A stretch of 64,000 bases of DNA from a virus. The position numbers and the translations under genes were made by a program. The notes beneath the pieces were generated by a model, which was not told where the DNA came from, did no database searches, and saw only the letters and a list, made by a program, of their open reading frames with translations. Positions 1,757 to 64,000 of this stretch are shown piece by piece. Position 1 is the stretch's first letter. The number at the start of each line of letters is the position of its first letter. Location of the stretch: IMG/VR virus record IMGVR_UViG_3300008259_004660, positions 120,825 to 184,824 of that record. One strand, 5' to 3'.

Positions 1757-1767
1757 TTTATAACACC

Positions 1768-22735: not shown

Positions 22736-22738
22736 TGT

Positions 22739-23386: not shown

Positions 23387-23388
23387 TT

Positions 23389-24699: not shown

Positions 24700-24702
24700 G
24701 TT

Positions 24703-25500
24703 ATGTACAAAGGTAAAAAGGTTATACTCACAACCACAGCGTGCAGACGCCCACAATTGCTGTATATGGCAATCAAGAGTTTTGGAGTATTTTGTACAGA
24801 CAAAGATGTTATAGATGAAATTTATTACTTGGACGATTCATCATCTCAAGAAGATCGTAATTTTGCCATAGAAACATATACAAAGTTTATTGGCAAACCT
24901 GTTATATTCAGATTTGTTGAGCGCGAAACATTTCCAGACAATTATAGACATGCCAGAATGCTCAATATCTGGAGAGAATGTGTTATTGAATCGAAAGCCG
25001 ATTATGTGTTTCATCTTGAAGATGATCATCGCATGTATAACATGCTTACTATAGGCCAGCCTATTGATATCATGCAAAAATATCCAGAATATGCATACAT
25101 CGGATATTGTCACAGTTGGAAACATTTTCCAAAAGGCATGGAGCCAAAAAGAGTAATTGGGGATTTTTGGGAAACTGTATATTTTGATGATCGTCCAATA
25201 AATGATCACTTGTTTATGGATGACGCTATGGCTATGCAGACTGGTCCAGAATGGTGGATGTATTATATAAATTGGCCATATTTTTCATTGAGGCCGGGCG
25301 TGCATGATGCAAAAAAACTTTTATCGGTGGGAGAATTTTCAACGACATATGACCGCGAAAAAATGAGTGTAGAACTTGAATTCGCCATCCGTTGGAAAGA
25401 TATGGGTTATAAAAGCATGATGAGCAAGAATTTTACTTCACTTCATACTGGACAAAGTCCCGAACTTAGTGCATATAAGTTGAACGCATCTGCCAGATAA
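24703..25500 (+). CDS. GT-A fold (GT2-like) glycosyltransferase
   Basis: ILTTTACRRPQLL, YLDDSS, YVFHLEDD DxD-like motif, FSLRPG, HTG. Confidence 0.7.
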   Translation: MYKGKKVILTTTACRRPQLLYMAIKSFGVFCTDKDVIDEIYYLDDSSSQEDRNFAIETYTKFIGKPVIFRFVERETFPDNYRHARMLNIWRECVIESKADYVFHLEDDHRMYNMLTIGQPIDIMQKYPEYAYIGYCHSWKHFPKGMEPKRVIGDFWETVYFDDRPINDHLFMDDAMAMQTGPEWWMYYINWPYFSLRPGVHDAKKLLSVGEFSTTYDREKMSVELEFAIRWKDMGYKSMMSKNFTSLHTGQSPELSAYKLNASAR

Positions 25501-25502
25501 AC

Positions 25503-27275: not shown

Positions 27276-27279
27276 CAAT

Positions 27280-46736: not shown

Positions 46737-47963
46737 ATGGCAGACACATCGATAAATTACACCGTAGATCAGGATCGCGTGAGATGGCCGGGGTCTGGTT
46801 CCGCAATCACACCCGGAAGCGGCTCAACTCCTTTTGGATTTTACGATGGTGATGCAGTTTTTCAGTTGGACGCGCCGAATGCAGCAAAATGGGCGGCAAC
46901 AAGATTGGGCTATCCAATCACCGACATTGAAATGATTGACAAAAATTTTTATGCATGTTTTGAAGAAGCATGTTTTGAATATAGCGCACAAGTAAATCAG
47001 TTTAATATTCGCAACAACATGGGTGTGTTGCAAGGAAGTTCAGCCAATGTTAATTTGACCCAAACAAATGTTGCAGCAAGTGGACTGCCACAATTGATCA
47101 GATTGGCTGAAGGATATGGAACAGAGTTTGGTGTTGGTGGAAAAGTAGATTGGAAAAAAGGATTTATACATGTTGAAGCAAAAAAGCAAACATATGATCT
47201 TCAGGCTTTGTGGGGAAATGTAAGTGAAAGTTTTGATCGTATTGAAATTCGCAGAATTTTTCATCAGATGCCACCCGCTGCTGCAAGAATTTATGATCCA
47301 TTCAGCATGACTGGTATGAGCTATAGCAATGTATTGAATGAAATGGGATTTGCTGGGTATTCTCCTGCCACACAATTTTTGATGACGCCAATCTTTGAAG
47401 ACTTGCTAAGAATGCAGGCAATTGAATTTAATGACCTTGTTAGAAAATCGGCATGGAGTTTTGAATTGGTAAACAACAAATTGAAATTATTCCCAATTCC
47501 AACATATGATTTCACGATGTATTTTGAATATCTGCTTGTGAAAGATCGCGACAGTCAGGGCATATACAATTCTGGTTCATTCTATGTTTCTGGCAGCAAC
47601 ACTGTTGTTTCATCATCTGTGATTGGAGATTATAGCAATGTGCCTTACAACAATATTCCATACACCACCATAAACAGTGTAGGTAAACAATGGATAAGAA
47701 AATATTTCCTCGCGCTTTGTAAAGAAGTGCTTGGAAGCATTCGCCAAAAGTATCAAACCATTCCAATTCCCGGAGCAGAAGTCACACTTGATGGTGGAGA
47801 ATTGCGTCAAGAAGCATCGTCTGAAAAAGAAGCATTGATTACTCAGCTAAGAGAAAATCTTGAAGCCACTGGCAGAAAAGCTCAAATGGAACTAAGAGAA
47901 GCCGAGGCACAACAACTTCAAGCAACACTCCAAAAAGTTCCGATGGGAATTTATATTGGATGA
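46737..47963 (+). CDS. Neck protein (T4 gp13-like head-tail adaptor)
   Basis: RLGYPITDIEM...CFEEA, WIRKYFLALCKE.LG..R.KY..IP.PG.EVTLDG.ELRQEA. Confidence 0.8.
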   Translation: MADTSINYTVDQDRVRWPGSGSAITPGSGSTPFGFYDGDAVFQLDAPNAAKWAATRLGYPITDIEMIDKNFYACFEEACFEYSAQVNQFNIRNNMGVLQGSSANVNLTQTNVAASGLPQLIRLAEGYGTEFGVGGKVDWKKGFIHVEAKKQTYDLQALWGNVSESFDRIEIRRIFHQMPPAAARIYDPFSMTGMSYSNVLNEMGFAGYSPATQFLMTPIFEDLLRMQAIEFNDLVRKSAWSFELVNNKLKLFPIPTYDFTMYFEYLLVKDRDSQGIYNSGSFYVSGSNTVVSSSVIGDYSNVPYNNIPYTTINSVGKQWIRKYFLALCKEVLGSIRQKYQTIPIPGAEVTLDGGELRQEASSEKEALITQLRENLEATGRKAQMELREAEAQQLQATLQKVPMGIYIG

Positions 47964-48367
47964 AACCTTTCTCGTTACTAGATCAAGTATTGTCCGAGAG
48001 TGAAAGAAAAAGAATGAAATTTGTCGGACTAAAAAGAACTCTCAAACCGAGAGGCAAGTTCACATCATTGGAAAGAAAATATTATCTCATGCTGAAGAAC
48101 TTGGATGTCTATTATGTTCCGCAATATCCGATGGGAGGAAGATATTACGACGCATATCTGCCAGATCAAAACATACTATTTGAATTTGATGGTTCATTTT
48201 GGCATCCAAAGAATGAAGATGATGCAAAATATGATTTTCAGAAAAAAGCATTTAAGGTTGATGAACTGAAAAACAAGATGGCTGAAAAGAAAGGAATGAA
48301 GATCATTCGCATTCGTGAAGATGAACCAATCACATTGGAACAGATGAAAAAATTGATCTTCTCATAA
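47960..48367 (+). CDS. DUF559/Vsr-like PD-(D/E)xK endonuclease
   Basis: TSLE, QYPMGG.YYDAYL...ILFEFDGSFWH, KN...G..IIRI.E. Confidence 0.75.
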   Translation: MKPFSLLDQVLSESERKRMKFVGLKRTLKPRGKFTSLERKYYLMLKNLDVYYVPQYPMGGRYYDAYLPDQNILFEFDGSFWHPKNEDDAKYDFQKKAFKVDELKNKMAEKKGMKIIRIREDEPITLEQMKKLIFS

Positions 48368-48370
48368 GTT

Positions 48371-50347
48371 ATGCCAATCAAGTATATAAATAAAAATACA
48401 ATTTCTACAACATCCACTTCACTTGGAAGTTTTGTTGGAAGGTCTGCGTCTGAAGCCAGCGGTTGGAGAGGTATTACATATGGAAATGGTTTATTTGTTG
48501 CAACGGCATATTCTTCAGGAACAAACAGAGTAATGACATCTCCAAATGGAATAACTTGGACATCTAGGTCAGATGCTCTTAATCCTCAATATGGATCAGA
48601 TAATTGGTTTAGTGTTACATACGGAAACGGATTATTCGTGGCTGTTTCTAGTACCTCTGGAGGATCGTCTGGAAAGGTAATGACATCTCCCGATGGAATA
48701 ACTTGGACAACTAGAAATGCAAATCCTGTAGCCAATACTTGGTATAGTGTTACATACGGAAACGGATTATTTGTGGCCGTTGCAGGTAGCGGAACAAACC
48801 GAGTAATGACTTCAACAGATGGAATAACTTGGACAGCAAGATCCGCTGCGGAAAATAATACTTGGCGAGATGTTACATATGGAGGCGGATTATTTGTAGC
48901 CCTTGCACAAGACGGAACAAACCGAGTCATGACTTCAACAGACGGAATAACTTGGACAGCGAGATCTGCGGCTGAAGCCAATAGTTGGTCTGGTGCAGTA
49001 TACGGAAACGGATTATTTGTGGCCGTTGCACAAGACGGAACAAACCGAGTCATGACTTCAACAGACGGAATAACTTGGACAGCGAGATCTGCGGCTGAAG
49101 CCAATAGTTGGCAAAAAATATCATATGGAAATGGTATGTTTGTGGCAGTGGCCTCAGATGGAACAAATAGAATCATGTCCTCAACAGACGGAATAACTTG
49201 GACATCAAGGTCTGCGCCAGAACAAACTCAATGGGTAAATATAACGTATGCCAGTGGATCTTTTGTTGGAATTGCACAAAGCGGAACTAATAGAGTTATG
49301 ACCGCAGATTTGACTACAAATGTACTTGTTTCCGGTGGAATGAAATTTATAAACAGAAACAATAATACTTCTAATAGAAGAATGGGATTCATAATACCGC
49401 CCGGCCCTGTTGTTTATAGTCCAACTCAAAGAGCAATATTTGGGTATGGTGAAGCTGGAAGTTATCAATCAATCACGAATTTGGTAAGTAATACAGGAGT
49501 TCTTGCCAATGATGTTGCCGGTGTTGGTACTGCAAGAGCATATTTAGGTGCTGCTGGGTATGGAGGAGACAAAGCTATATTTGCGTATGGAGTCGTAGCC
49601 GGAACGACTAATATAAAAAACCTTGTCAGCAACACCGGCGTTGTGGCTGCTGATTCGTCTGGAGTAGGAACATCTAGAAATAAGCTCGGTGCGGTAAGTT
49701 ATGGAATAGATAAAGCGATATTTGGATATGGATCAACGGTTTACGGCACTCCTTCTTCCAGTGAAAGAGTATCAATGACAAATCTAGTTAGTAACACGGG
49801 AGTTGTGGCTACTGATACAACAGGTGTTGGTTCAAGTAGATACAACCTTGCTGCGACTGGCTATGGCGGTGATAAAGCTATGTTTGTATATGGTCAATTA
49901 GATGGTAACAACAACGGATTGTTAACAGTCAATCTTGTGAGCAACACTGGAGTTGTTGCGTCTGATACAAGCGCCGCCGCTGGCACTGCAAAGACACAAG
50001 GCGCGGGAGCAAATTACGGAGGAGATAAGGGTATAATTGGATTTGGAATATCCGGCGGCTCATATACGAGAGAAACCAATTTAGTTTCTAACACAGGAGT
50101 AATTGCATCGAACACCGCTAACTATTATGGTTACATAGGTGGGGTGAACGATGTTCTAGAAAGAGGTTGGTTGGCCGCTGCTGGATATGGTGGTGATAAA
50201 GCCATATTTGGATTTGGGGCATTGAATGCAAGTAGATATAGTTATACAAATCTTGTCAGTAATACAGGTGTGGTCGCGTCAAATACATATAATTCCAATC
50301 CAACTACAAGATATGGACTGGCCGCAGCAGGATACTCTTTAACATAA
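48371..50347 (+). CDS. Putative receptor-binding/adhesin protein with two repeat families (BNR-like 41-aa repeats and Kelch-like repeats)
   Basis: About 7 copies of YGNGLFVAVA..GTNRVMTS.DGITWT.R, then about 7 copies of TNLVSNTGVVA.D....G..R...AA.GYGGDKAIFG. Confidence 0.7.
   Translation: MPIKYINKNTISTTSTSLGSFVGRSASEASGWRGITYGNGLFVATAYSSGTNRVMTSPNGITWTSRSDALNPQYGSDNWFSVTYGNGLFVAVSSTSGGSSGKVMTSPDGITWTTRNANPVANTWYSVTYGNGLFVAVAGSGTNRVMTSTDGITWTARSAAENNTWRDVTYGGGLFVALAQDGTNRVMTSTDGITWTARSAAEANSWSGAVYGNGLFVAVAQDGTNRVMTSTDGITWTARSAAEANSWQKISYGNGMFVAVASDGTNRIMSSTDGITWTSRSAPEQTQWVNITYASGSFVGIAQSGTNRVMTADLTTNVLVSGGMKFINRNNNTSNRRMGFIIPPGPVVYSPTQRAIFGYGEAGSYQSITNLVSNTGVLANDVAGVGTARAYLGAAGYGGDKAIFAYGVVAGTTNIKNLVSNTGVVAADSSGVGTSRNKLGAVSYGIDKAIFGYGSTVYGTPSSSERVSMTNLVSNTGVVATDTTGVGSSRYNLAATGYGGDKAMFVYGQLDGNNNGLLTVNLVSNTGVVASDTSAAAGTAKTQGAGANYGGDKGIIGFGISGGSYTRETNLVSNTGVIASNTANYYGYIGGVNDVLERGWLAAAGYGGDKAIFGFGALNASRYSYTNLVSNTGVVASNTYNSNPTTRYGLAAAGYSLT
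48903..49111 (+). repeat. 86-bp perfect direct repeat (48903-48988 and 49026-49111) at the 123-bp repeat period
   Basis: Both copies read TTGCACAAGACGGAAC...GCCAATAGTTGG. Confidence 0.85.
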
Positions 50348-51502: not shown

Positions 51503-52903
51503 ATGGCATGGCGCGGACCAACTCAAAGACCAACGGTCAATAAGCCTGTTCCAAATCCAATAAATTATGGACCAGAGATGTCTGACTCAAAAAAGCCTGT
51601 ATCTCAGGCCGTGGCTGGTCCTGAATACAAGCCAAACAGAGCATTTGATGTTCGTCGCGATACTGATAAACAGAAGAACTTTTCTGTTAAACTAGTTGAC
51701 GTTGATTCGACCATATTGAGTTATCTTGACACCGTCATTAGTCCTACAATCGTTGACTCAGGAAGACAAATCAAAGTACCAATCAATTATGCTTCACCAG
51801 AAAGATGGAAAGCTATAAGAAAAGATGGAGCATTGCGTGACAAAAATGGAAAAGTGCAAACTCCTGCCATTGCATTTCGTCGCAGCACAATGCAAAGAAA
51901 TGATCAGCTGATAACTCTAAACAGATATTTGCAATATCCTGTGCAGAAGAAATTCAGCGAAAAGAACAAATATGACAAATTTAGTGTCATGCATGGATTT
52001 GCGCCAACAAAGGAAATATACAGTGTGGCGATGCCAGATCATGTTATTGTGAATTATGAATTCATCGTGTGGACTGAACTTGTCGAGCAAGGTAATGCCA
52101 TAGTCGAAGCAATCAATTTTTCTACCGAGGATTATTGGGGCGACAAGAAAAGATTCAAATTCAGAACAAGTATCAGCGACTATAGTTTTGAAACCGCCAC
52201 AGACGCTGGTAATGATAGACTCGTAAGAAGCACATTCACATTATTGTGTTATGCATATCTGCTTCCGGATAAATATGAAAATTACAAGAGTGTAGTGCAA
52301 AAAGCGTTCACACCAAGAAAAATACTTTTCACCACAGAAGTTGTTACAGAAAATTTAAATGCAAGAACAACCGAACTTGGTTCAGCAACACCTGTTCAAA
52401 TGAAATCGCCCGCTGCTTCATCTGGTGTGTTTGGTGGATTCCCGGGCATTACTCAAATCGCTAACTACGCAAATGCAGCAGGAACAGCAAATACAGCAAA
52501 TTATGCAACAACTGCAAGCTATGTAAACTTCTCTGAAATAAATGGAAATTTCAATGGTATCACTATCAACGGAGAATCTGGTGCAACAGGATCAATCAAC
52601 ACAAATGTCACAGTTAATGTTACACCAGATTCTGGTTCTGTATATATCGACAGTATACCAATCTCAAGTGGAAATACAGCAAAATGGCTGATATCCATTA
52701 ATGATGGTGTTAATAATTTCAAGGCTAGCGAAATGGTAGCAAGTTGGAACAATACTATGGTCAAATATTACAACACAGAAGTAAGTGAAATAGGAAGCGT
52801 GCCAGTAACACTCTCGGTGGATAACACTGGCGGCAATATAAATCTACTTGCGACGGCGTTCAGCGGCAATTGGACAATAAAAATGATACGCATGGTTGTT
52901 TGA
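51503..52903 (+). CDS. Tail terminator/sheath stabiliser (gp15-like) with a C-terminal extension
   Basis: IKVPINYASPERW, PAIAFRRS.M.R, PDHVIVNYEFIVWTE...N.IVE gp15-like core; extra ~170-aa C-terminal region. Confidence 0.65.
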   Translation: MAWRGPTQRPTVNKPVPNPINYGPEMSDSKKPVSQAVAGPEYKPNRAFDVRRDTDKQKNFSVKLVDVDSTILSYLDTVISPTIVDSGRQIKVPINYASPERWKAIRKDGALRDKNGKVQTPAIAFRRSTMQRNDQLITLNRYLQYPVQKKFSEKNKYDKFSVMHGFAPTKEIYSVAMPDHVIVNYEFIVWTELVEQGNAIVEAINFSTEDYWGDKKRFKFRTSISDYSFETATDAGNDRLVRSTFTLLCYAYLLPDKYENYKSVVQKAFTPRKILFTTEVVTENLNARTTELGSATPVQMKSPAASSGVFGGFPGITQIANYANAAGTANTANYATTASYVNFSEINGNFNGITINGESGATGSINTNVTVNVTPDSGSVYIDSIPISSGNTAKWLISINDGVNNFKASEMVASWNNTMVKYYNTEVSEIGSVPVTLSVDNTGGNINLLATAFSGNWTIKMIRMVV

Positions 52904-52943: not shown

Positions 52944-52959
52944 ACGGGATTCTTCCCGT
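52944..52959 (+). other. Intergenic hairpin ACGGGA-ttct-TCCCGT
   Basis: 6-bp GC-rich stem before the ATATTTATA element of the giant gene. Confidence 0.4.
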
Positions 52960-52988
52960 ATATAAAAAGATATTTCCAGAGGCAGTAT

Positions 52989-52997
52989 ATATTTATA
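52989..52997 (+). promoter_or_regulatory. ATATTTATA upstream element
   Basis: Intergenic, before the giant fibre gene. Confidence 0.55.
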
Positions 52998-53017
52998 ATA
53001 TATTCGCATAAATCTTT

Positions 53018-56000
53018 ATGAGTAACGAACTAATTGTCAGAAATGGCTTGATTGTATCTGGTACATCCAGCTTTTCTGGCAGCGTATTCATAAATGGAAA
53101 TACTGTTGTAACAGGTTCTATCATCAGTAATCAAGTTGCATACTTAACAGCAAGCCAAGCTTTGACAGCTTCACATGTTCTTGGATTGCCAGATACATCA
53201 AGTTGGGCTCTTAATGCTGTATCTGCTGCCTTTTCAGAATATGCAGTAAGTGCATCATATGTTATTGGCGCACCTGATACAGCAAGTTGGGCATTAAATG
53301 CTGTTTCATCTTCATACGCATTATCATCTTCATATGCTGTTTCGTCATCTTATTCATTATCGGGGTCGTATGTTGATACTGCTTCATATTCAAATTATGC
53401 AGTAAGTGCGTCATATGTTATTGGTGCTCCAGATACTGCTTCATGGGCATTGAATGCTGTTACAGCTTCTTATGTTGAATATACAAATGTAGATAAGATA
53501 ACATCAACATCACAATTTGCTGGAACAGCAAGTTATGCTCAAAGAGCAAACAGCATCAAAAGTGGAATTGACATTGATGTAACTTCAATAACAGCATCAG
53601 CAATACGTGTTGATAATCTACATGTTGTTACCATAACAAGTAGTGTAAATTTTGTTTCTGGTAGCACAGACTTTGGAACAAGTATAACTGATACACATGT
53701 TTTCACAGGCAGTCTTTTTGTTCAAGGAAACATAAATGTTGAAGATGGTTATGGTATACAAGGAACTTCGTCGTATGCTGTAACAGCAAGTTATGCTTTT
53801 AACACCAGTACATCTGGTACTAGTGGCACAAGCGGAAGTAGTGGAAGCAGTGGCAGTAGCGGAACAAGTGGTAGTAGTGGAAGTGCTGGTACAAGTGGTA
53901 GCAGTGGCACAAGTGGCACCGATGGATCAAGTGGTAGTAGTGGAACGGGAGGAAGTAGTGGTAGTAGTGGAACAAGTGGTAGTAGTGGTAGTAGTGGCAG
54001 CAGTGGATCAAGCGGATCATCTGGTACAAGTGGATCATCTGGTACAAGTGGATCAAGTGGAACAACGGGTACGAGTGGTAGTAGTGGAAGCGGTGGTACA
54101 AGTGGAACCAGCGGTTCGTCTGGAACAAGCGGAACGAGTGGAAGTAGTGGTACAAGTGGAACAGACGGATCGTCTGGATCTAGCGGCAGTAGTGGATCTT
54201 CTGGTACAAGTGGAAGTAGTGGTACAAGTGGAACTGGTGGATCGTCTGGTTCGAGTGGAAGTAGCGGTTCTTCGGGAACAAGTGGATCAAGTGGAACTTC
54301 TGGCTCAAGCGGTACTTCTGGATCAAGTGGTAGCAGCGGTAGTAGTGGTAGTAGTGGAACAAGTGGAAGCAGTGGAACAAGTGGTAGTAGTGGTAGTAGC
54401 GGCACTAGCGGCAGCAGCGGAACAACAGGAACAAGTGGTAGCAGTGGATCTTCTGGTACAACTGGAACGAGTGGAAGCAGTGGAAGTGCTGGTACCAGCG
54501 GAAGTAGTGGAACCAGTGGTACAGATGGTTCAAGTGGAAGTAGTGGCAGTGCCGGTACAAGTGGCAGTAGCGGCAGTAGTGGAACCAGCGGTTCAAGTGG
54601 TAGCAGCGGTACAAGTGCAACATCGGGATCAAGTGGTACTAGCGGAAGCAGTGGTAGTAGTGGATCTTCTGGTACAAGCGGAAGCGGAGGAACAAGCGGC
54701 AGTAGCGGAAGTAGTGGTACTACTGGAACAAGCGGTAGTAGCGGTACCAGTGGAACAGATGGTAGCTCTGGGTCAAGTGGAAGTGCTGGAACAAGTGGTT
54801 CTAGTGGATCTAGTGGAAGTAGTGGTACGAGTGGATCAAGTGGAAGTAGTGGAACTAGTGGCAGCAGCGGCAGCAGCGGAACAAGTGCAACTTCTGGATC
54901 TTCTGGAACAAGCGGTAGTAGTGGCAGCAGTGGAAGTAGTGGAACCAGTGGCTCGTCTGGATCGGCAGGTACAAGTGGATCTAGTGGAAGTGCTGGTACA
55001 AGTGGTAGCAGTGGCACAAGTGGTACCGATGGTTCCAGTGGTAGCAGCGGAAGCAGCGGATCGTCTGGTTCTTCTGGTACCAGTGGAAGTAGCGGAACCA
55101 GTGGGTCTTCTGGTACAAGTGGAAGTAGCGGTACCAGCGGTAGTAGTGGAACAAGCGGAAGCAGCGGTAGCAGTGGTAGTAGTGGAACCAGTGGTAGCAG
55201 TGGAAGCAGCGGCAGTAGTGGAAGCAGTGGTAGTAGTGGAACAGCAGGTTCTTCTGGTAGCAGTGGATCAAGTGGATACACACCAGAAAACATGGTTACA
55301 AGTTCTTTCCAACTTTCAAACGATGGCGGTCTTGCATTCAGCAGTGCAAACAATGTTACATTTGGTCAAATCACCGCTTCTATTATCACTGTATCAACAT
55401 TATATGTTCAAAACATAACAAGCAGTACAGAACTTGTAACTGGAAGTTTTGTTGTAAGTGGATCCTTTGATGCAATCGGTGGAGTAACAGGAAGTCTTCT
55501 TGGTACAGCAAGTTATGCTCTACAAGCTCTGACCGCTTCATATGCACTTAATGCTGAAGGATCAAATAAAACACAACTTACTGCTTCAACAATATTATTT
55601 ACAGGAAGCGCGACAAATCTTTCACTAAATGTTTCATCGTCGGGTGATGTTGCCATAACTGGCATAAATAATGGAGATATTGTTGTAATATCAGATTCAA
55701 CAAGTTCAACTCCATTATTTGGAATTGAAAGTGTAAACAATCCTTTATTCAGTGTATATAATAGCGGAAATGCATATTTGAGTGGAAGCTTGTCTGCTTC
55801 ATTATATGGTACAGCAAGTTGGGCAGTTACAGCAAGCTATGCTTTAAGCTACAGTGGAACATCTGGTAGTAGTGGCACAAGCGGAACATCTGGTTCAAGT
55901 GGCAGTGCTGGTACAAGTGGTAGTAGTGGAACAAGTGGAACAGACGGTAGTTCGGGTTCGTCTGGAACTGGTGGATCAAGTGGATCTTCAGGTAGCTCTG

Positions 56001-59000
56001 GTACGTCTGCAACTTCTGGAACTGGTGGATCAAGTGGAAGTTCTGGAACTAGTGGAAGTAGTGGAACAGGAGGTTCTTCTGGAAGCAGTGGAACAAGTGG
56101 AAGTAGTGGTAGCGGTGGAAGTAGTGGTTCAAGTGGAACTTCTGGTTCATCAGGAACCAGTGGAAGCAGCGGAACTTCTGGTACAGATGGTAGTAGTGGA
56201 AGTGCTGGTACCAGTGGCAGTGCAGGTACTAGTGGTACAGACGGATCAAGTGGTACCAGTGGTAGTGCAGGTACGAGTGGAAGTAGTGGTACCAGCGGTA
56301 GCAGTGGTACAAGTGGAACTGCTGGATCAAGCGGAACGTCTGGGTCAAGTGGTTCTTCTGGTACAACTGGAACTTCTGGAAGCAGCGGAACTGCTGGTTC
56401 AAGTGGAAGTGCAGGAACATCGGGAAGTGCTGGATCTTCTGGTTCGGCTGGAACAAGTGGTAGTAGTGCAAGTGCCGGTACCAGTGGCACAAGCGGCACA
56501 GATGGATCAAGTGGTAGCAGTGGTTCTGGTGGATCAAGCGGAAGTAGTGGCACAGCTGGTAGCAGTGGAAGTAGTGGTACAAGCGGTAGCAGTGGTTCGA
56601 GTGGAACCAGTGCAACCAGTGGAAGTAGCGGTACATCTGGTACCAGTGGAAGTAGCGGTACATCTGGTTCAAGTGGAACAAGCGGTACTGATGGTAGCAG
56701 CGGAAGTAGTGGTAGTAGTGGATCTTCGGGATCAAGTGGTACTGGTGGAACAAGTGGTAGCAGTGGTACCACAGGAAGTAGTGGTAGTAGTGGTAGCGCA
56801 GGAAGTAGTGGTAGTAGTGGTTCATCTGGATCAAGTGGTACAGGAGGAAGTTCAGGAACAAGTGGAACCAGTGGTAGCAGTGGAACGGGTGGTAGTAGCG
56901 GATCAAGTGGTACTAGCGGAACAGATGGTAGCAGTGGTAGCAGCGGCAGTGGAGGAAGTTCTGGAACAAGCGGTACAGATGGTACCAGTGGTAGCAGTGG
57001 AACTTCAGGTACTTCTGGTTCAAGTGGAAGTGCAGGAACTAGTGGCAGCAGCGGAAGTAGTGGCACTACTGGAACAAGCGGTAGTAGCGGTACCAGTGGA
57101 ACAGATGGTAGTAGCGGTAGTAGTGGAACAAGTGGGTCTACTGGTACAAGTGGTAGCAGCGGATCAAGTGGTAGTAGTGGTAGTAGTGGAACAACAGGAA
57201 CAAGTGGTAGTAGTGGTACAAGTGGAACATCTGGTTCGGCTGGCTCTGCCGGATCAAGCGGTAGCAGCGGTAGTAGTGGAGCAGGAACAATTTCTGGTGG
57301 AACAAGCAACTATGTGGCAAAATTTAGCAATGCCACAACACTGACTACAAGTTCAATCTTTGATGGTGGATCTGGAGTTGGTATAAATAAATCTACAGCA
57401 AATTCCACACTTGATGTAAATGGTAATACAATAATCACTGGATCATTGACTGTTACCCAGAACGTAACCGCTTCAAACATTGTTGTTACAAATCTTTATG
57501 TACAAAACATAACTGCTTCCACGGAAATTGTAACAGGAAGTACTCAGTTTGGAACATTGCTTTCAAACAAGCATATGTTCACTGGAAGTGTTGAAATAAC
57601 AAGTTCATTAAAGGTAAATGGTGATTTTTCAGTAAATGGAAATACAGGCAGCTTGGCTTTCTCAAGCAACGCAGATACTTTGGAAATAACTGGTTCATTA
57701 TTATTAAGTGGATCAATGTTTGTTACAGGAAGTATCTCTGTAAATGGTAGTATAACTGGTTCACTTTTTGGCACGGCTTCGTATGCATTAAACGCACTTA
57801 CTGCTTCATACGCTTTAAGTTATAGTGGTACGAGCGGTAGCAGTGGAACCAGTGGGTCTTCTGGTACGTCTGGTACAAATGGAACCAGTGGATCAAGCGG
57901 AACTGGCGGAACCAGTGGAAGCAGTGGTACAGGTGGATCTTCTGGAAGTAGCGGAACGAGTGGTAGTAGTGGAAGTTCTGGTACAAGTGGTACGAGTGGT
58001 AGTAGTGGAACATCTGGAACAGATGGTAGTTCTGGATCAAGCGGTTCAAGTGGCTCCAGTGGATCATCTGGTACTTCTGGTAGCGCAGGAACATCGGGAT
58101 CTGCTGGATCGGCTGGAAGTAGCGGTAGCAGTGGAAGTGCTGGTACAAGTGGTACGAGTGGTAGTAGTGGAACATCTGGCACGGACGGAAGTAGTGGAAG
58201 TTCTGGTAGTAGTGGTACCGCTGGTACTTCTGGTAGTGCAGGTACTAGTGGAAGTAGTGGTTCGAGTGGAACATCTGGAACAGATGGAAGCAGTGGTAGT
58301 AGTGGTACTTCTGGTAGTGCCGGTACTGGTGGTTCAAGTGGAAGCAGTGGTTCATCTGGAACGAGTGGGGAAGGCGGAAGTGCAGGAACATCTGGTACAA
58401 GCGGCAGTGCTGGTACGAGTGGAACGAGTGGTAGTGCTGGAACTGCTGGATCCAGTGGTAGTGCGGGAACATCAGGTTCTGCTGGATCAGCTGGAACAAG
58501 TGGTAGTAGTGGAAGTGCTGGTACAAGTGGTACCAGCGGTTCAAGCGGAACATCTGGAACCAGTGGAAGTAGTGGATCCAGTGGAAGCAGCGGATCTTCT
58601 GGAACGAGTGGTAGTGCTGGTACTTCTGGTAGTAGTGGAACAGCTGGAACAAGTGGATCGGCCGGTTCAAGTGGTTCTTCTGGAAGTGGAGGAAGTTCTG
58701 GATCGGCTGGAACATCTGGTACAAGCGGCAGTTCTGGTACAAGTGGTACAAATGGCTCAAGTGGTACTTCTGGTACTAGCGGATCTTCTGGAACGGGTGG
58801 AACTAGTGGTAGTAGTGGAAGTGCTGGCAGTGCAGGTAGTGCAGGATCAAGCGGCACAAGTCCAATAATAACTGGAACAAACTTCACGCTTGCATTGTTC
58901 AGCGGAAGTAATGGATTGAGTAGCAGTGTGTTAAGTCAATATGATAATGGATTATATTTGACTGGATCGTTGAATGTAAGTGGATCAACTCTACAAGTTG

Positions 59001-62000
59001 GTAATAACACATTACTTGGTAACACATCACTTAGTGGTAGTTTAACAATTTCTGGTGCATTTGCCACAGCAACACCAAGTGTAAATATTTTCGGAGATAT
59101 TTCACAGACTGGATATCTCAGATTTAACCCAGTTAATACAAATATAAATCAAAGCATTTCCGCTTCATACATTTATGTCTCTGGTAGTACAAATGATTTA
59201 TATTTTGCTCAGAATGGAAGTGGATACAGTAACAATACTCGTCTTCGTTGGTTGGAAGGAGTATTATATACTGGATTGCTAAATGGTGGATTGGTATCAA
59301 GCACAGTTGGTTCTACTACTTTCAATATATCTTCTGGTAGTGGTATAATTGTAAGTTTAAATGCTAGTTTAAGCACAGATCCATTTCCAACTGTAAAATA
59401 TGTAAATTGGGGAAATTACAATAATCAACCAATAACATACTCTGGCTCCGCCAAGTTGACATATGTTGGTATTGATTCGAATGGGGCAGTTGTTCAACAA
59501 GTTGAGCCTTGGGGTTCAACAAACATAGATCAATTTGACAGCCAAATATTACTTGGTATTGTGTTGCATTTGAGTGGAAGTATTTCATCGGGAGTATTTA
59601 ATTCACCACAAACAGCATATGGTAATTCTCAAAAATCAGACGACTTTTTCAGATCGTTTGGTCCATTAAAAGTAAGTGGGCATACATTGCAAACCAGTGG
59701 GTCTTCGCTTGGCCTTACAAAGGCTGGTGGTACAGCATACAGAGATGGTGCAAATTATGTTACCAACCCAAATCACCCATCAACGGTCGTTGAAAATTCT
59801 ATAACAACAAGTAAAATTTACAGATATTATGTGTCTGGATCAACGCCTATAATTGATACTGGTGTTGGTGCATCAGGTTATACCGCAATAGATCCAAATA
59901 ATTACAACAATAATGGAGTACTTACTTCTGTTCCTTCAAACAATTATACTATTCAGAGAGTATTTTGGACTCCAAATTCTCCAACTAATGCATTTGTAGT
60001 TTATTATGGAACTGCAACATATTCCAATTTGTTGACCGCAGTCAATGCCAAGGATAGTGAACCATTTTCAGAAGCTCCAGATACAGCCACCGATGCAATC
60101 TTCTTAGGTCATATTGTTGTAAAAGAAGGAACTACAAACCTAACTGTTGCAAATGATTGCACGATAATTCAAGGCGGACTATTTAGAAATATTGCAGGTG
60201 TTGGATCAAGTGGAACTGCTGCTCCTGTTGTAAATCTTTCTGGTTTGGGTGACGTTTTAATATCCGTACCAACAGACGGTCAACCTCTTGTATATGATTC
60301 AACAGCATTGAAGTGGAGAAACTTGTCTGCCATAACCGCTTCGTTGTATGGTAATGCATCAACGGCAACAAGTGCTTCGTATGCTACCACAGCAAGCTAT
60401 GCTTTCAGTTATAGCGGAACGTCTGGTAGCAGCGGCACAAGCGGAACTTCTGGTACAGCAGGATCTGCTGGAACTTCTGGTACAAGCGGAAGTAGTGGCA
60501 CAAGTGGAACAAATGGATCTTCTGGTACAAGTGGAACTAGTGGATCAAGCGGAACAAGCGCATCCGCTGGAAGTAGTGGTTCAAGTGGAAGCGCAGGAAC
60601 TGCTGGATCTAGTGGTAGTGCTGGAACAAGTGGCAGCAGCGGAACGTCTGGTACTGGCGGTAGCAGTGGAACATCTGGTAGTAGTGGATCTGGCGGTAGC
60701 AGTGGTTCAGCTGGATCGTCTGGATCAAGTGGCAGTGCTGGAACAAGTGGAAGTGCAGGAACATCTGGGTCAACAGGTTCGAGTGGAAGCAGTGGAAGTG
60801 CAGGTAGTGCGGGAACATCTGGATCAAGTGGTAGTGCTGGAACTGCTGGTAGTGCTGGTTCGGCTGGTACAAGTGGAACGAGTGGATCTTCTGGAAGCAG
60901 TGGAAGTTCTGGATCAAGTGGTACAAGTGGAACTTCTGGATCAAGTGGAACTTCTGGATCAAGTGGTAGTAGTGGAACAAGTGCTTCATCTGGAAGCAGT
61001 GGCACAAGCGGAGCAACGGGTGCATCTGGGTCAAGTGGTACAAGTGGAACTTCTGGCTCCGCAGGTTCTGCTGGATCAAGTGGTAGTAGTGGAAGCAGCG
61101 GTGCTGGAACAATATCAGGCGGTACAGCAAATTATGTAACAAAGTTTAGCAATGCGACTACATTGACCACGAGTTCAATATTTGATGGTGGTTCTGGTGT
61201 TGGCGTAAACAAATCATATGCTAATTCGACGCTCGATGTAAATGGAAACACAATCATCACAGGTTCGTTGAATGTTACTCAAAATGTGACTGCGTCAAAT
61301 ATTTTGGTGACAAATCTTTATGTCCAAAATATTACCGCTTCAACTGAAATTGTAACGGGTAGCACGCAGTTTGGTTCATTGCTTACCAACAAACATATGT
61401 TTACAGGCAGCGTTGAAATAACAAATTCATTGAGTGTATCTGGTCAGATATATGGAACATCTTCATATGCATTGACTGCATCATACGCGATGAATGCAGC
61501 GGGTTCAAATAATTCTGTACTAACTGCTTCAGCAATACTCTTTACAGGTAGTACAACAAATGTTTCACTTTATGTTTCTGCCTCCGGCGATGTTGTATTC
61601 ACGGGAACAAACAATGGAGATATATTTGTAATATCCGACTCATCAACCGCTGGTGATCCATTGTTCAGAGTTGATGATGGTGGAGTGACATTGTTTCAAG
61701 TTTATCAAGGTGGCAATGCATATTTGAGTGGAAGTTTAACCGCATCACTTAATGGAACTGCAAGTTATGCTGTTACTGCAAGCTATGCGTTGAGTTATAG
61801 TGGAACAAGCGGTAGTAGTGGTACAAGCGGAACAGGTGGCAGCGCAGGATCAAGCGGCTCTTCTGGATCAAGTGGCAGTAGTGGAACTACTGGTACAAGT
61901 GGCAGCAGTGGTACAAGCGGAGCTACAGGTGCATCTGGATCAAGTGGAACAAGTGGTACGAGTGGAAGTAGTGGTACTTCTGGTACAGGTGGTAGTAGTG

Positions 62001-63241
62001 GAAGTTCTGGAAGCAGTGGCAGTAGTGGAAGTTCTGGTACAAGTGGAAGTGCAGGTACAAGCGGAAGTGCAGGAACAGGAGGATCGTCGGGTAGTAGTGG
62101 TAGTAGTGGATCTTCTGGAAGCGCGGGAACAAGCGGTAGTAGCGGTAGTGCTGGAACAAGCGGAACCAGTGGTAGTGCTGGCACAGGTGGTACAAGTGGT
62201 TCGTCTGGTAGCAGCGGTAGCAGTGGCAGTAGCGGTAGTGCTGGAACAAGCGGAACCAGTGGCAGTTCTGGAACAACAGGATCAAGCGGATCATCTGGCA
62301 CAAGTGGTACAAGTGGCTCGTCTGGTACAAGTGGAAGCTCTGGTACAAGTGGCAGCAGTGGTACAAGCGGCGCAACTGGTGCGTCGGGTTCAAGTGGCAC
62401 AAGTGGTACGGGTGGAAGCAGTGGAACCAGTGGTGCAACTGGAGCATCAGGTTCTAGTGGAACAAGTGGTACCAGTGGATCATCTGGAACGTCTGGTTCG
62501 GCTGGATCAAGCGGCAGTAGTGGAAGCAGCGGTGCTGGAACAATTTCTGGCGGTACAACGAGTTATGTTGCCAAGTATCTAAATTCAACAACGCTGACAA
62601 CTGGTTCATTATTTGATGATGGTACAAATGTAAGTGTTGGCAAAACAACATCCGCGTCCGCCAAACTTGATGTAAATGGAAATGTACTTATCACAGGTTC
62701 ACTTAATGTTACTCAGAATGTAACTGCATCAAACATTGTTGTCACAAATCTTTATGTTCAGACGATTACTGGTTCTGTTGAATTTATAACTGGTAGTACA
62801 CAATTTGGATCATTACTAACCAACAAACATCAATTTACTGGTAGTGTTGAAATGACTGGATCTGGTTTGGATGTTATGGGCAGTGTTGGTATAGGAACAT
62901 ACACTCCAAATGAAAAACTTGAAGTTGTTGGAAATATCAGACTTACTGCCGGTGCATACATTGACTATATATCAGAATTAAGATATGTTGGCTCGGCATG
63001 GTTAACATACAATACTAGTACTGGTAAGATAACGATAAAGAATGCATCGGGAAATGGTGTGGCAATAGATGGTGGAAATGTTACCGTCGGAAAACAATCG
63101 GCAGCAAATGCTTTATTTGATATAGCCGGCAATACTATTATATCAGGTTCACTCAATATAACCTCTGGTGTAACAGGATCATTGCTTGGAACATCAAGTT
63201 ATACACTTACGGCGAGCTATATAGATGGAGGAACGTTCTAA
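53018..63241 (+). CDS. Giant tail fibre/appendage protein, 3407 aa, with five Ser/Thr-rich Gly-X-Y segments and repeated beta-rich modules
   Basis: Single open frame; (G-S/T-S)n tracts; TASYA motifs; ends IDGGTF. Confidence 0.8.
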   Translation: MSNELIVRNGLIVSGTSSFSGSVFINGNTVVTGSIISNQVAYLTASQALTASHVLGLPDTSSWALNAVSAAFSEYAVSASYVIGAPDTASWALNAVSSSYALSSSYAVSSSYSLSGSYVDTASYSNYAVSASYVIGAPDTASWALNAVTASYVEYTNVDKITSTSQFAGTASYAQRANSIKSGIDIDVTSITASAIRVDNLHVVTITSSVNFVSGSTDFGTSITDTHVFTGSLFVQGNINVEDGYGIQGTSSYAVTASYAFNTSTSGTSGTSGSSGSSGSSGTSGSSGSAGTSGSSGTSGTDGSSGSSGTGGSSGSSGTSGSSGSSGSSGSSGSSGTSGSSGTSGSSGTTGTSGSSGSGGTSGTSGSSGTSGTSGSSGTSGTDGSSGSSGSSGSSGTSGSSGTSGTGGSSGSSGSSGSSGTSGSSGTSGSSGTSGSSGSSGSSGSSGTSGSSGTSGSSGSSGTSGSSGTTGTSGSSGSSGTTGTSGSSGSAGTSGSSGTSGTDGSSGSSGSAGTSGSSGSSGTSGSSGSSGTSATSGSSGTSGSSGSSGSSGTSGSGGTSGSSGSSGTTGTSGSSGTSGTDGSSGSSGSAGTSGSSGSSGSSGTSGSSGSSGTSGSSGSSGTSATSGSSGTSGSSGSSGSSGTSGSSGSAGTSGSSGSAGTSGSSGTSGTDGSSGSSGSSGSSGSSGTSGSSGTSGSSGTSGSSGTSGSSGTSGSSGSSGSSGTSGSSGSSGSSGSSGSSGTAGSSGSSGSSGYTPENMVTSSFQLSNDGGLAFSSANNVTFGQITASIITVSTLYVQNITSSTELVTGSFVVSGSFDAIGGVTGSLLGTASYALQALTASYALNAEGSNKTQLTASTILFTGSATNLSLNVSSSGDVAITGINNGDIVVISDSTSSTPLFGIESVNNPLFSVYNSGNAYLSGSLSASLYGTASWAVTASYALSYSGTSGSSGTSGTSGSSGSAGTSGSSGTSGTDGSSGSSGTGGSSGSSGSSGTSATSGTGGSSGSSGTSGSSGTGGSSGSSGTSGSSGSGGSSGSSGTSGSSGTSGSSGTSGTDGSSGSAGTSGSAGTSGTDGSSGTSGSAGTSGSSGTSGSSGTSGTAGSSGTSGSSGSSGTTGTSGSSGTAGSSGSAGTSGSAGSSGSAGTSGSSASAGTSGTSGTDGSSGSSGSGGSSGSSGTAGSSGSSGTSGSSGSSGTSATSGSSGTSGTSGSSGTSGSSGTSGTDGSSGSSGSSGSSGSSGTGGTSGSSGTTGSSGSSGSAGSSGSSGSSGSSGTGGSSGTSGTSGSSGTGGSSGSSGTSGTDGSSGSSGSGGSSGTSGTDGTSGSSGTSGTSGSSGSAGTSGSSGSSGTTGTSGSSGTSGTDGSSGSSGTSGSTGTSGSSGSSGSSGSSGTTGTSGSSGTSGTSGSAGSAGSSGSSGSSGAGTISGGTSNYVAKFSNATTLTTSSIFDGGSGVGINKSTANSTLDVNGNTIITGSLTVTQNVTASNIVVTNLYVQNITASTEIVTGSTQFGTLLSNKHMFTGSVEITSSLKVNGDFSVNGNTGSLAFSSNADTLEITGSLLLSGSMFVTGSISVNGSITGSLFGTASYALNALTASYALSYSGTSGSSGTSGSSGTSGTNGTSGSSGTGGTSGSSGTGGSSGSSGTSGSSGSSGTSGTSGSSGTSGTDGSSGSSGSSGSSGSSGTSGSAGTSGSAGSAGSSGSSGSAGTSGTSGSSGTSGTDGSSGSSGSSGTAGTSGSAGTSGSSGSSGTSGTDGSSGSSGTSGSAGTGGSSGSSGSSGTSGEGGSAGTSGTSGSAGTSGTSGSAGTAGSSGSAGTSGSAGSAGTSGSSGSAGTSGTSGSSGTSGTSGSSGSSGSSGSSGTSGSAGTSGSSGTAGTSGSAGSSGSSGSGGSSGSAGTSGTSGSSGTSGTNGSSGTSGTSGSSGTGGTSGSSGSAGSAGSAGSSGTSPIITGTNFTLALFSGSNGLSSSVLSQYDNGLYLTGSLNVSGSTLQVGNNTLLGNTSLSGSLTISGAFATATPSVNIFGDISQTGYLRFNPVNTNINQSISASYIYVSGSTNDLYFAQNGSGYSNNTRLRWLEGVLYTGLLNGGLVSSTVGSTTFNISSGSGIIVSLNASLSTDPFPTVKYVNWGNYNNQPITYSGSAKLTYVGIDSNGAVVQQVEPWGSTNIDQFDSQILLGIVLHLSGSISSGVFNSPQTAYGNSQKSDDFFRSFGPLKVSGHTLQTSGSSLGLTKAGGTAYRDGANYVTNPNHPSTVVENSITTSKIYRYYVSGSTPIIDTGVGASGYTAIDPNNYNNNGVLTSVPSNNYTIQRVFWTPNSPTNAFVVYYGTATYSNLLTAVNAKDSEPFSEAPDTATDAIFLGHIVVKEGTTNLTVANDCTIIQGGLFRNIAGVGSSGTAAPVVNLSGLGDVLISVPTDGQPLVYDSTALKWRNLSAITASLYGNASTATSASYATTASYAFSYSGTSGSSGTSGTSGTAGSAGTSGTSGSSGTSGTNGSSGTSGTSGSSGTSASAGSSGSSGSAGTAGSSGSAGTSGSSGTSGTGGSSGTSGSSGSGGSSGSAGSSGSSGSAGTSGSAGTSGSTGSSGSSGSAGSAGTSGSSGSAGTAGSAGSAGTSGTSGSSGSSGSSGSSGTSGTSGSSGTSGSSGSSGTSASSGSSGTSGATGASGSSGTSGTSGSAGSAGSSGSSGSSGAGTISGGTANYVTKFSNATTLTTSSIFDGGSGVGVNKSYANSTLDVNGNTIITGSLNVTQNVTASNILVTNLYVQNITASTEIVTGSTQFGSLLTNKHMFTGSVEITNSLSVSGQIYGTSSYALTASYAMNAAGSNNSVLTASAILFTGSTTNVSLYVSASGDVVFTGTNNGDIFVISDSSTAGDPLFRVDDGGVTLFQVYQGGNAYLSGSLTASLNGTASYAVTASYALSYSGTSGSSGTSGTGGSAGSSGSSGSSGSSGTTGTSGSSGTSGATGASGSSGTSGTSGSSGTSGTGGSSGSSGSSGSSGSSGTSGSAGTSGSAGTGGSSGSSGSSGSSGSAGTSGSSGSAGTSGTSGSAGTGGTSGSSGSSGSSGSSGSAGTSGTSGSSGTTGSSGSSGTSGTSGSSGTSGSSGTSGSSGTSGATGASGSSGTSGTGGSSGTSGATGASGSSGTSGTSGSSGTSGSAGSSGSSGSSGAGTISGGTTSYVAKYLNSTTLTTGSLFDDGTNVSVGKTTSASAKLDVNGNVLITGSLNVTQNVTASNIVVTNLYVQTITGSVEFITGSTQFGSLLTNKHQFTGSVEMTGSGLDVMGSVGIGTYTPNEKLEVVGNIRLTAGAYIDYISELRYVGSAWLTYNTSTGKITIKNASGNGVAIDGGNVTVGKQSAANALFDIAGNTIISGSLNITSGVTGSLLGTSSYTLTASYIDGGTF
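53810..55275 (+). repeat. Gly-X-Y (9-bp period) tract 1, about 160 triplets
   Basis: SGTSGSSGS... with Gly every third residue; boundaries approximate. Confidence 0.9.
55851..57290 (+). repeat. Gly-X-Y tract 2, about 160 triplets
   Basis: Same pattern; boundaries approximate. Confidence 0.9.
57822..58860 (+). repeat. Gly-X-Y tract 3, about 115 triplets
   Basis: Same pattern; boundaries approximate. Confidence 0.9.
60411..61105 (+). repeat. Gly-X-Y tract 4, about 77 triplets
   Basis: Same pattern; boundaries approximate. Confidence 0.9.
61797..62540 (+). repeat. Gly-X-Y tract 5, about 82 triplets
   Basis: Same pattern; boundaries approximate. Confidence 0.9.
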
Positions 63242-63283: not shown

Positions 63284-64000
63284 ATGCCAGATAGAATATT
63301 ACATAAAAGAAATACAACAATTGGAGCAGTTCCATCAACATCATCATTGATTGTTGGTGAATTGGCAATAAATGTTGCAGATGGAAAATTGTTTACTAGA
63401 AAATCTGGCAGTAGTTCCGATGTCGTTGTTTCATATCTTGGATCTGATGTATCAAATACAGGAAGTTATACCATTTCTGGTTCTCTTATAGTATCTGGTA
63501 ATTTCTTAGCAACTGGAAACACTGGTAGTATTGCATTTTCAAGTAATGCGGACACTTTGGAAATAACTGGTTCTTTACTATTAAGTGGCTCAATGGTTGC
63601 CACGGGCAGTATATCAGTAAATGGTAGTGTAACCGCATCACTTCTTGGTACAGCTTCTTATGCATTAAATTCACTAACAGCGTCTTATGCTTTCAGTTAC
63701 AGTGGAACGTCTGGAAGCAGTGGTACCGCTGGGTCAAGCGGAAGCAGTGGTAGTAGTGGAAGTGGTGGATCTTCTGGTTCAAGTGGAACGGGTGGATCAA
63801 GTGGCAGTAGTGGGACTGGTGGATCAAGTGGCAGTAGCGGTACTAGCGGTGCTGCTGGTACTTCGGGTTCAAGCGGCACGAGTGGAACTGGTGGTAGCAG
63901 CGGAACAAGTGGTGCGACAGGTGCATCTGGTTCAAGTGGAACCAGTGGAACTGGTGGTAGCAGCGGAACAAGTGGTGCAACTGGCGCGTCTGGTTCAAGT
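63284..64000 (+). CDS. Second Gly-X-Y fibre protein (3' truncated; absent from the ORF track)
   Basis: ATG 63284 opens MPDRILHKRNTTIGAVPSTSSLIVGELAINVADGKLF (typical tail-fibre N-terminus), then TASYA and an SGT tract from about 63700 to the window end with no stop. Confidence 0.85.
   Translation, partial: MPDRILHKRNTTIGAVPSTSSLIVGELAINVADGKLFTRKSGSSSDVVVSYLGSDVSNTGSYTISGSLIVSGNFLATGNTGSIAFSSNADTLEITGSLLLSGSMVATGSISVNGSVTASLLGTASYALNSLTASYAFSYSGTSGSSGTAGSSGSSGSSGSGGSSGSSGTGGSSGSSGTGGSSGSSGTSGAAGTSGSSGTSGTGGSSGTSGATGASGSSGTSGTGGSSGTSGATGASGSS

Follow-up and report, generated by a model that had tools for sequence, protein, structure and literature searches.

The open reading frame (ORF) at positions 53018-63241 (+ strand) of the DNA analysed here, a stretch of 64,000 nucleotides from the virus record IMGVR_UViG_3300008259_004660 (positions 120,825 to 184,824; hereafter the window), raises the question of what else can hold a collagen triple helix together when the usual stabilisers are missing. 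In the current view of collagen biophysics, a triple helix is stable only with imino acids, charge pairs or hydroxylation, and the gene belongs to a widespread family, of natural origin and under strong selection, which has none of these and whose tracts equal or exceed animal fibrillar collagen in length; with a defined candidate enzyme at hand, the question is directly testable. We favour, with a probability of about 0.6, the reading that the gene encodes a trimeric collagen-like virion fibre with ~0.5 µm of rod that is probably O-glycosylated; the triple-helix conformation, the glycosylation, the attachment point (baseplate or neck) and the capture function are the parts of this reading that we infer.

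According to the proposed mechanism, the protein would form five collagen-type triple-helical rods between paralogous trimeric spacer modules, with a module resembling receptor-binding proteins (RBPs) in the middle of the chain. The caps and spacer modules would set the register of the chains, with the caps nucleating folding, and the rods would be stabilised by hydration of Ser and Thr and, probably, by dense O-glycosylation. The sugar would be added by the phage's own TibC/Aah-type heptosyltransferase and may be extended and methylated by the products of neighbouring transferase genes, giving a long, thin, hydrated and protease-resistant line that would widen the phage's reach for hosts in dilute water.

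Composition and selection of the Gly-X-Y tracts

The fibre gene is one uninterrupted frame of 3,407 residues that contains five Gly-X-Y tracts. By script count, tract 1 (53816-55282, residues 267-755) holds 163 triplets, tract 2 (55856-57286, residues 947-1423) 159, tract 3 (57827-58861, residues 1604-1948) 115, tract 4 (60416-61108, residues 2467-2697) 77 and tract 5 (61802-62539, residues 2929-3174) 82, all on the + strand, which amounts to 596 triplets with no phase shift inside any tract and a longest perfect run of 115. At 0.286 nm per residue the corresponding rods would measure ~140, 136, 99, 66 and 70 nm, and the 1788 tract residues together ~511 nm. The glycine site is occupied by Gly in 589 triplets and by Ala in the other seven (ATS four times, ASA twice and ASS once), position X by Ser (340), Thr (243) and Ala (11), and position Y by Ser (462, or 78%), Ala (69), Gly (29), Thr (17), Asp (16) and Asn (3). 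Pro, Lys and Arg are absent from all tracts, and Asp and Glu account for 17 of the 1788 residues. A preliminary description of the locus, made from the letters alone, had put forward about 600 proline-free triplets in five tracts, with rare Ala at the Gly site, Ser or Thr at X and mostly Ser at Y, and the counts agree with it; its assignment of the tracts to the collagen type is borne out by the match to Pfam Collagen (PF01391), at 633 bits against a cut-off of 27.2 (E 2e-195).

A glycine at every third residue is also compatible with polyglycine-II (PGII) helices, and the periodicity is shared with the snow-flea antifreeze protein and with gp38 of S16/T2-like phages, a phage fibre adhesin that contains a PGII sandwich (PMC12032242). 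The preliminary description had offered such a bundle as an alternative, in which the tracts would fold back as antiparallel PGII helices and possibly bind ice or polysaccharide. The glycine share of the tract residues, however, is ~35% (589 at the first position and 29 at Y, of 1788). Known PGII bundles have roughly 45% glycine or more. Inspection of the tracts for a turn or loop signal of regular spacing found none: the occurrence of Thr at X and of residues other than Ser at Y gave autocorrelations of at most ~0.3 without a common period, and Asp at Y showed no common periodicity along the tracts. Unbroken tracts of 231-489 residues, and of 1020 in the related locus L047, would need dozens of strands without loops, whereas in the known PGII proteins a far more glycine-rich sequence folds into a small, compact monomer with loops between short strands, none of which is seen here. 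Since the single-sequence prediction for tract 4, in itself weak evidence, gives no monomeric fold either, and the flanking modules are of the trimeric fibre type, a PGII bundle is very improbable; ice binding was dropped, as the evidence for PGII is absent.

Synonymous codons are mixed within the region, with GGA (294), GGT (256), GGC (60) and GGG (8) for glycine and all six codons in use for serine, although AGY makes up 71% of the latter against ~35% in the other genes of the window. The gene was compared with its orthologues at the loci L005 and L007, both from other metagenomes, by protein-guided codon alignment. At the Gly sites we counted 166 synonymous changes and one non-synonymous change against L005, and 258 and seven against L007, a large contrast even though the alignment is somewhat forced within low-complexity sequence; the X and Y sites accepted 28-105 replacements. 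Because the changes at glycine are nearly all synonymous while X and Y vary, the Gly periodicity is under selection at the protein level, as the preliminary description had deduced from the mixed codons.

Long repetitive tracts invite the suspicion that they were collapsed, expanded or made chimeric through short-read assembly, and many of the related contigs do break inside the gene, as the window contig itself runs out within the collagen-like gene that follows. Exact DNA repeats in the region, however, reach no more than 47 nt, the units reported by TRF match at only 60-85%, and one frame passes through all the unique modules between the tracts. The architecture is also shared by the two other metagenome assemblies, with 164, 159 and 113 triplets in tracts 1-3 of L005 and 167, 164 and 137 in those of L007, as compared to 163, 159 and 115 here, so that tract lengths differ by 1-2 triplets (tract 2 being of equal length in L005) and by 4-22 triplets, respectively. 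These matching lengths in independent assemblies make a collapse or chimera unlikely, and we give the artefact hardly any weight.

Capping modules, relatives and position of the gene

The tracts are framed by modules that are largely related to each other. The N-terminal non-collagen domain (53018-53815, residues 1-266) carries repeated [ST]ASY[AV] motifs, has a start that is conserved in L005, L007 and L012, and is presumed to be the virion-attachment end; its Atlas neighbours are viral only, and its residues 149-262 are paralogous to the spacer modules. These are ID1 (55283-55855, 191 residues), ID2 (57287-57826, 180 residues) and ID4 (61109-61801, 231 residues), which share 56-60% identity, ID1 being 60% identical to ID4, and ID2 being 56% identical to ID4, 58% to the C-terminal domain and 78% to the N-terminal part of the next ORF. 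The C-terminal domain of 233 residues (62540-63241, with the stop codon), presumably the distal end, is paralogous to ID2 and ID4 over its first ~140 residues, and ID4 is thus related to ID1, ID2 and the C-terminal domain alike. A conserved cap, ...TASYA[LF]SYS, precedes all five tracts (TASYALSYS at the end of ID1), and a post-tract motif, TISGGT.NYV.KF..., with which ID2 begins, follows three of the five. Searches of Pfam and PHROGs with the N-terminal, spacer and C-terminal modules returned nothing above noise, sequence searches of the PDB with the three non-collagen domains nothing meaningful, and tblastn of the N- and C-terminal domains against phages, with the low-complexity filter on, no match; the C-terminal domain was thus without a match in Pfam, PHROG, PDB and phage-database searches.

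The central module (58862-60415, 518 residues) is more informative. By tblastn it matches tailspike and tail fibre genes of Streptomyces, Stenotrophomonas and Flavobacterium phages, and it has more than 477 homologues with 50-76% identity in metagenome proteins of 600-900 residues, a few of them with Peptidase_S74. An AlphaFold2 (AF2) model built from 41 sequences reached a predicted local distance difference test (pLDDT) score of 68; Foldseek of this model against the PDB gave no match at E ≤ 1e-3. In an exhaustive VIA-align search the top 11 matches were all 'shoulder' domains of phage RBPs or TssK, among them those of the cyanophage A-1(L) tail fibre, the HFTV1 fibre, the RBPs of lactococcal phages 1358 and p2, and Mtd, with modest Z values of 5.0-7.9 against at most 3.4 for the rest, so that the weight rests on the coherence of the matched set. 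As judged from the model, the module is structurally nearest to trimeric RBP/TssK shoulder domains.

Related genes were collected by using the upstream gp15-like protein as a synteny anchor, which retrieved 68 related viral loci. In ~50 of the 68, a proline-free Gly-[ST]-[SN] giant ORF lies directly downstream of the gp15-like gene, many contigs breaking inside it. Complete genes, of 1910-2060 residues, are found in a clade farther away (L042, L047, L064 and others); they have an N-terminus unlike that of the window protein and essentially one tract, which in L047 runs for 340 uninterrupted triplets (1020 residues), then one ESS, then 148 more triplets. The C-terminal domain of the L064/L047 clade matches many tail-fibre C-termini and Pfam Peptidase_S74 (E 5.5e-11); in L064 the C-terminus also matches tail-fibre PHROGs, and another tail-fibre gene comes next. 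Peptidase_S74 is an intramolecular chaperone that trimerises phage fibres and spikes. Proteins of similar composition include the metagenome giants P0124-P0127, P0131 and P0133 and a 3488-residue ORF of the 735-kb phage LR756501, and a full-length homologue search found at least 13 giants, its candidate list being saturated by low-complexity words.

Two of these relatives deserve a separate description. In Microcystis phage Mel-JY01 (PP395634.1; loci L082 and L080, bases 1-3049), a frame of 1788 codons with 202 Gly-[ST]-S triplets spans the ends of the linear record, and the deposited annotation shows two opposite-strand ORFs there instead (1-651 and 739-2298), so that the collagen-like fibre gene of a cultured phage is unannotated. 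The tracts of the window are likewise open in several frames and on both strands (53791-62582), with spurious ORFs of up to 541 residues as by-products of the repeat; gene callers can therefore choose the wrong strand in such tracts, and, as the case of Mel-JY01 shows, the family is under-reported. A literature search for Mel-JY01, meant to look for long fibres in electron micrographs, found no paper on this phage. The uncultured LR756501.1 (735 kb) contains at least five giant collagen-like frames of 1665-3488 residues (L086-L090, at ~400-418 kb, and also at ~103-124 kb), some of the proline-free GTS type and others rich in GPQ and GPT.

The main competitor to a triple helix is a disordered glyco-linker, in which the tracts would be flexible, mucin-like, heavily O-glycosylated bottle-brush tethers between trimeric fibre nodes, and Gly-Ser/Thr-Ser merely a soluble spacer that can be glycosylated. 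Gly/Ser-rich sequences are classic flexible linkers, and the tracts carry neither proline nor charges to speak of, show no structure in a single chain by AF2, and occur in a phage that encodes glycosylation machinery. A linker does not need a fixed register, yet glycine returns at each third residue over 596 triplets, and over 340 running triplets in L047, with hundreds of synonymous and almost no non-synonymous changes at the Gly sites. There are no phase-breaking indels within the tracts, the tract ends carry conserved caps, and the orthologues have a C-terminal trimerising chaperone, for which reasons we consider the linker unlikely. We favour the triple helix because of the strict and selected Gly register without phase breaks, the caps, the trimerising chaperone of the orthologues and the RBP-type modules.

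With regard to the position of the gene, the order in the window is terminase, portal, major capsid protein, gp13-like adaptor, HNH, three small or unknown genes, gp15-like gene and giant ORF, which places the latter in the late virion structural module, a position that is kept in ~50 related contigs. The window is the final 64 kb of a linear viral contig of 184,824 bp (CheckV completeness 78%), and the two end together. In its major capsid protein the phage shares 56-58% identity with Mel-JY01 and Flavobacterium phage immuto, which are distant T4-like myoviruses, and it is itself a distant T4-like phage, uncultured and from fresh water. The gp15-like tail-completion gene immediately upstream of the giant ORF (51503-52903, + strand; Pfam T4-gp15_tss, weak, E 2.8e-4) has homologues in immuto and Mel-JY01, and a DNA-level search of the phage collection with the upstream structural genes gave no match. 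Downstream, a second collagen-like fibre gene (63284-64000, + strand) ends at the contig end; its N-terminus matches tail-fibre PHROGs, and it shows the same cap and Gly-Ser/Thr-Ser triplets as the giant ORF. We also observed that it opens with a tail-fibre N-terminal motif, ILHKRN...GELAINVADGKLF. The position in the structural module, the fibre homology of the central module and the tail-fibre PHROGs in the next ORF and in L064 point to a virion fibre gene, which is in line with the fibre proposed in the preliminary description.

Attachment of the same collagen-like fibre to the neck or collar, as an analogue of whiskers or fibritin, or to the head, rather than to the baseplate as a tail fibre, would be a variant compatible with the triple-helical fibre. 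The gene comes right after those of the adaptor (gp13-like) and the gp15-like protein, and relatives that lack the fibre pass straight from the gp15-like gene to the sheath gene. The T4 whisker gene wac neighbours neck genes as well. The central and C-terminal modules and the adjacent ORFs, however, match tail-fibre and RBP families, and the N-terminal attachment domain had no informative homologue in the searches made; attachment at the neck or head is possible but we think of it as the lesser prospect. The interval that separates the gp15-like gene from the giant ORF (52944-53017) contains a short, GC-rich hairpin (GGGATTCTTCCC) and then an A/T-rich stretch, and these may represent a terminator and a late promoter.

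A candidate glycosyltransferase for the tracts

The window encodes, at 27247-29403 (+ strand), a fusion of a GT4 domain with a protein O-heptosyltransferase of the TibC/Aah type (bacterial autotransporter heptosyltransferase, BAHT). Its GT9-like half matches TibC in the PDB (4rap) with E 5e-78 and the NCBIfam equivalog TIGR04414 with 377.6 bits against a cut-off of 200. Residues essential in TibC have been named by its structure paper (PMC4358343), and in the alignment the phage enzyme keeps the catalytic Asp110, the sugar-binding Thr226, Lys230, Arg286 and Trp305, and all four cysteines of the iron finger (Cys339, Cys342, Cys358 and Cys370), whereas Pro300, the stereoselectivity determinant of TibC, is replaced by Ser, the same as in Aah. 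Upstream, the genes at 20807-27275 (+ strand) encode, by Pfam and NCBIfam, a GT4+FkbM protein, an FkbM protein, a CmcI-like methyltransferase, a 265-residue ORF without a family match and a GT2 protein; it is their position that suggests a link to the fibre.

Homologues of the BAHT are rare in phages, at four of 50,697 records. The enzyme and a proline-free Gly-[ST]-S protein were found together in the window genome and G005, in G001-3 and G007, in Mel-JY01, in LR756501, in G008-G011, and in L107/108, L112 and L116-118, the two genes being 0.2-3 kb apart in the last three groups of loci; in Mel-JY01 1.7 kb separate the end of the collagen gene from the BAHT-containing gene downstream of it, and in G003 the enzyme gene lies directly upstream of the tail sheath gene. 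Three relatives that lack the BAHT, immuto (a complete genome), G004 and LR756508 (484 kb), are also without a collagen-like gene. The BAHT-positive lineages are not all independent, and the co-occurrence stands without a background rate. As it stands, the pairing makes a strong case by gene association, which is guilt by association and not proof, and the phage BAHT is a candidate modifier of the fibre. The preliminary description had expected the tracts to depend on glycosylation; this gains real circumstantial support from the encoded TibC/Aah-type enzyme in its transferase/methyltransferase cluster and its co-occurrence with Gly-Ser/Thr-Ser proteins.

Three side observations concern the same genes. 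In LR756501 the BAHT homologue lies ~5 kb from a 699-residue Gly-[TS]-S frame. Just downstream of the BAHT gene of the window (29431-33333) is a 1300-residue protein with a cytidylyl/adenylyl-transferase-like segment at residues 344-543. A 'cytidylyltransferase like protein' occupies the same relative place in Mel-JY01.

Several results weigh against a glycosylated triple-helical fibre. Proline and charge pairs, by which bacterial collagens are usually stabilised, are both missing from the tracts. In the host-guest peptide scales of Persikov et al., from 2000, Ser at Y and Ser or Thr at X are reportedly below-average helix formers, so that the unmodified helix could be marginal. The AF2 prediction of tract 4 with its caps, from a single chain and a single sequence, was uninformative (pLDDT 32, no fold), which is weak evidence, and searches of Pfam and PHROG found no known trimerisation family, such as Peptidase_S74, in the window protein. 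As to the enzyme, known BAHT acceptors are Ser residues in beta-helical autotransporter repeats and not in collagen (PMC4358343), so that the enzyme might act on the Ser-rich spacer modules or on a different protein; a Pfam search of the candidate acceptor, the phage fibre, showed no autotransporter domain. A search of the contig, which is 78% complete, for GmhA of the ADP-heptose pathway found no such gene, and the donor sugar would therefore have to be supplied by the host or by the part of the genome that the contig lacks. The sole exception among the lineages tested is LR756504, in which a weak BAHT homologue (30% identity) occurs and a collagen gene does not. On the attachment site, the contig yielded no homologue of sheath or tube, and no baseplate module turned up between 84 and 104 kb of the contig, the one upstream 20-kb region that was scanned.

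In light of these points, the more specific proposal, that a collagen helix free of proline and charge pairs is stabilised essentially by dense O-heptosylation of Ser and Thr via the phage TibC-type enzyme and forms ~0.5 µm glycan-coated capture fibres, is put forward only tentatively, and we consider it doubtful in this full form. If true, it would provide a third, sugar-based way of stabilising collagen, and T4-like freshwater phages with fibres of ~0.5 µm. The reading predicts phage fibres several times the capsid length, as well as a second kind of phage-encoded virion glycosylation, via an enzyme family so far known from bacterial adhesins. Long fibres and virion glycosylation are each relevant to host range and to the way in which hosts are met in dilute waters. 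Collagen modules that are free of proline, open to glycosylation, compatible with E. coli and supplied with their own caps may be of interest as biomaterials.

Known collagen-like proteins and other features of the window

Phage collagen fibres, proline-free GTS/GSS collagen-like regions and glycosylated Thr-rich collagens are already established. What is new here is the scale, the complete absence of proline with almost no charge, the modular build of five rods and the link to a BAHT enzyme; a literature search found no paper describing a pairing of BAHT with a collagen-like fibre.

The closest phage precedents are the EPclA-D proteins, the 'bacteriophage collagen' of Smith et al. 1998 and orf028 of Prochlorococcus phage P-SSM2, which likewise have Gly-X-Y tracts framed by trimerisation or capping modules. 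For the E. coli prophage fibre protein EPclA, a collagen triple helix between trimerisation modules is proven (PMC3368898), and in P-SSM2 orf028 Gly-X-Y makes up 49%, with Pro, Ser and Thr common (PMC1079782). EPclA, which carries no glycosylation, is a protein of ~47 kDa whose single short tract abounds in Pro and charged residues, whereas the window protein has 3407 residues, with 596 triplets spread over five tracts that contain no Pro and hardly any charge, and is linked to a protein glycosyltransferase. Proline-free collagen-like regions of mostly GTS and GSS triplets are known from Burkholderia Bucl3 and related proteins, with 38-63 triplets (PMC4565658). Bucl3, however, is a bacterial surface protein outside any phage context for which no triple helix has been demonstrated, and the window tracts are about ten times longer.

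For the glycosylation, the comparison is with collagens that carry sugars on threonine. In the cuticle collagen of Riftia, the subject of work by Bann et al. in 2000, Thr is reportedly O-glycosylated without hydroxyproline, and the sugars are thought to stabilise or hydrate the helix. The Bacillus exosporium protein BclA has a collagen triple helix without hydroxyproline and O-linked sugars on Thr, to which the same role is ascribed (PMC8968730). Both have GPT-type triplets with Pro at X and glycosyltransferases unrelated to BAHT, whereas the glycosylation of the window protein is only predicted. In the TibC-TibA and Aah-AIDA-I systems, BAHTs hyper-glycosylate Ser residues of a repetitive adhesin in the cytoplasm, and the phage enzyme matches this family at the equivalog level; the known acceptors are 19-residue beta-helix repeats, whereas the phage enzyme is fused to GT4 and co-occurs with collagen-like repeats. 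Mycobacteriophage glycosyltransferases are said, by Freeman et al. in 2023 (work cited in PMC11256854 and PMC12582341), to O-glycosylate the phages' own virion proteins, at the C-termini of capsid and tail-tube proteins. Enzymes, acceptors and hosts differ from those of the window phage, and there is no collagen-like fibre in that system.

Other genes of the window were noted in passing. An HNH/homing-endonuclease-like gene (47960-48367) forms an insertion that parts the adaptor gene from the structural genes after it, and a 658-residue protein among the neck genes (48371-50347) has matches to DUF6242 and EPTP, of the beta-propeller type. Farther upstream, a 1055-residue protein (9815-12982) contains FG-GAP repeats (E 1.6e-27) with a weak dockerin-like match, which is unusual in a phage, and an ORF of 1068 residues (15413-18619) has an SbcD-like part (residues 18-354) and an SbcC-like part (residues 295-1066), apparently fused nuclease subunits.

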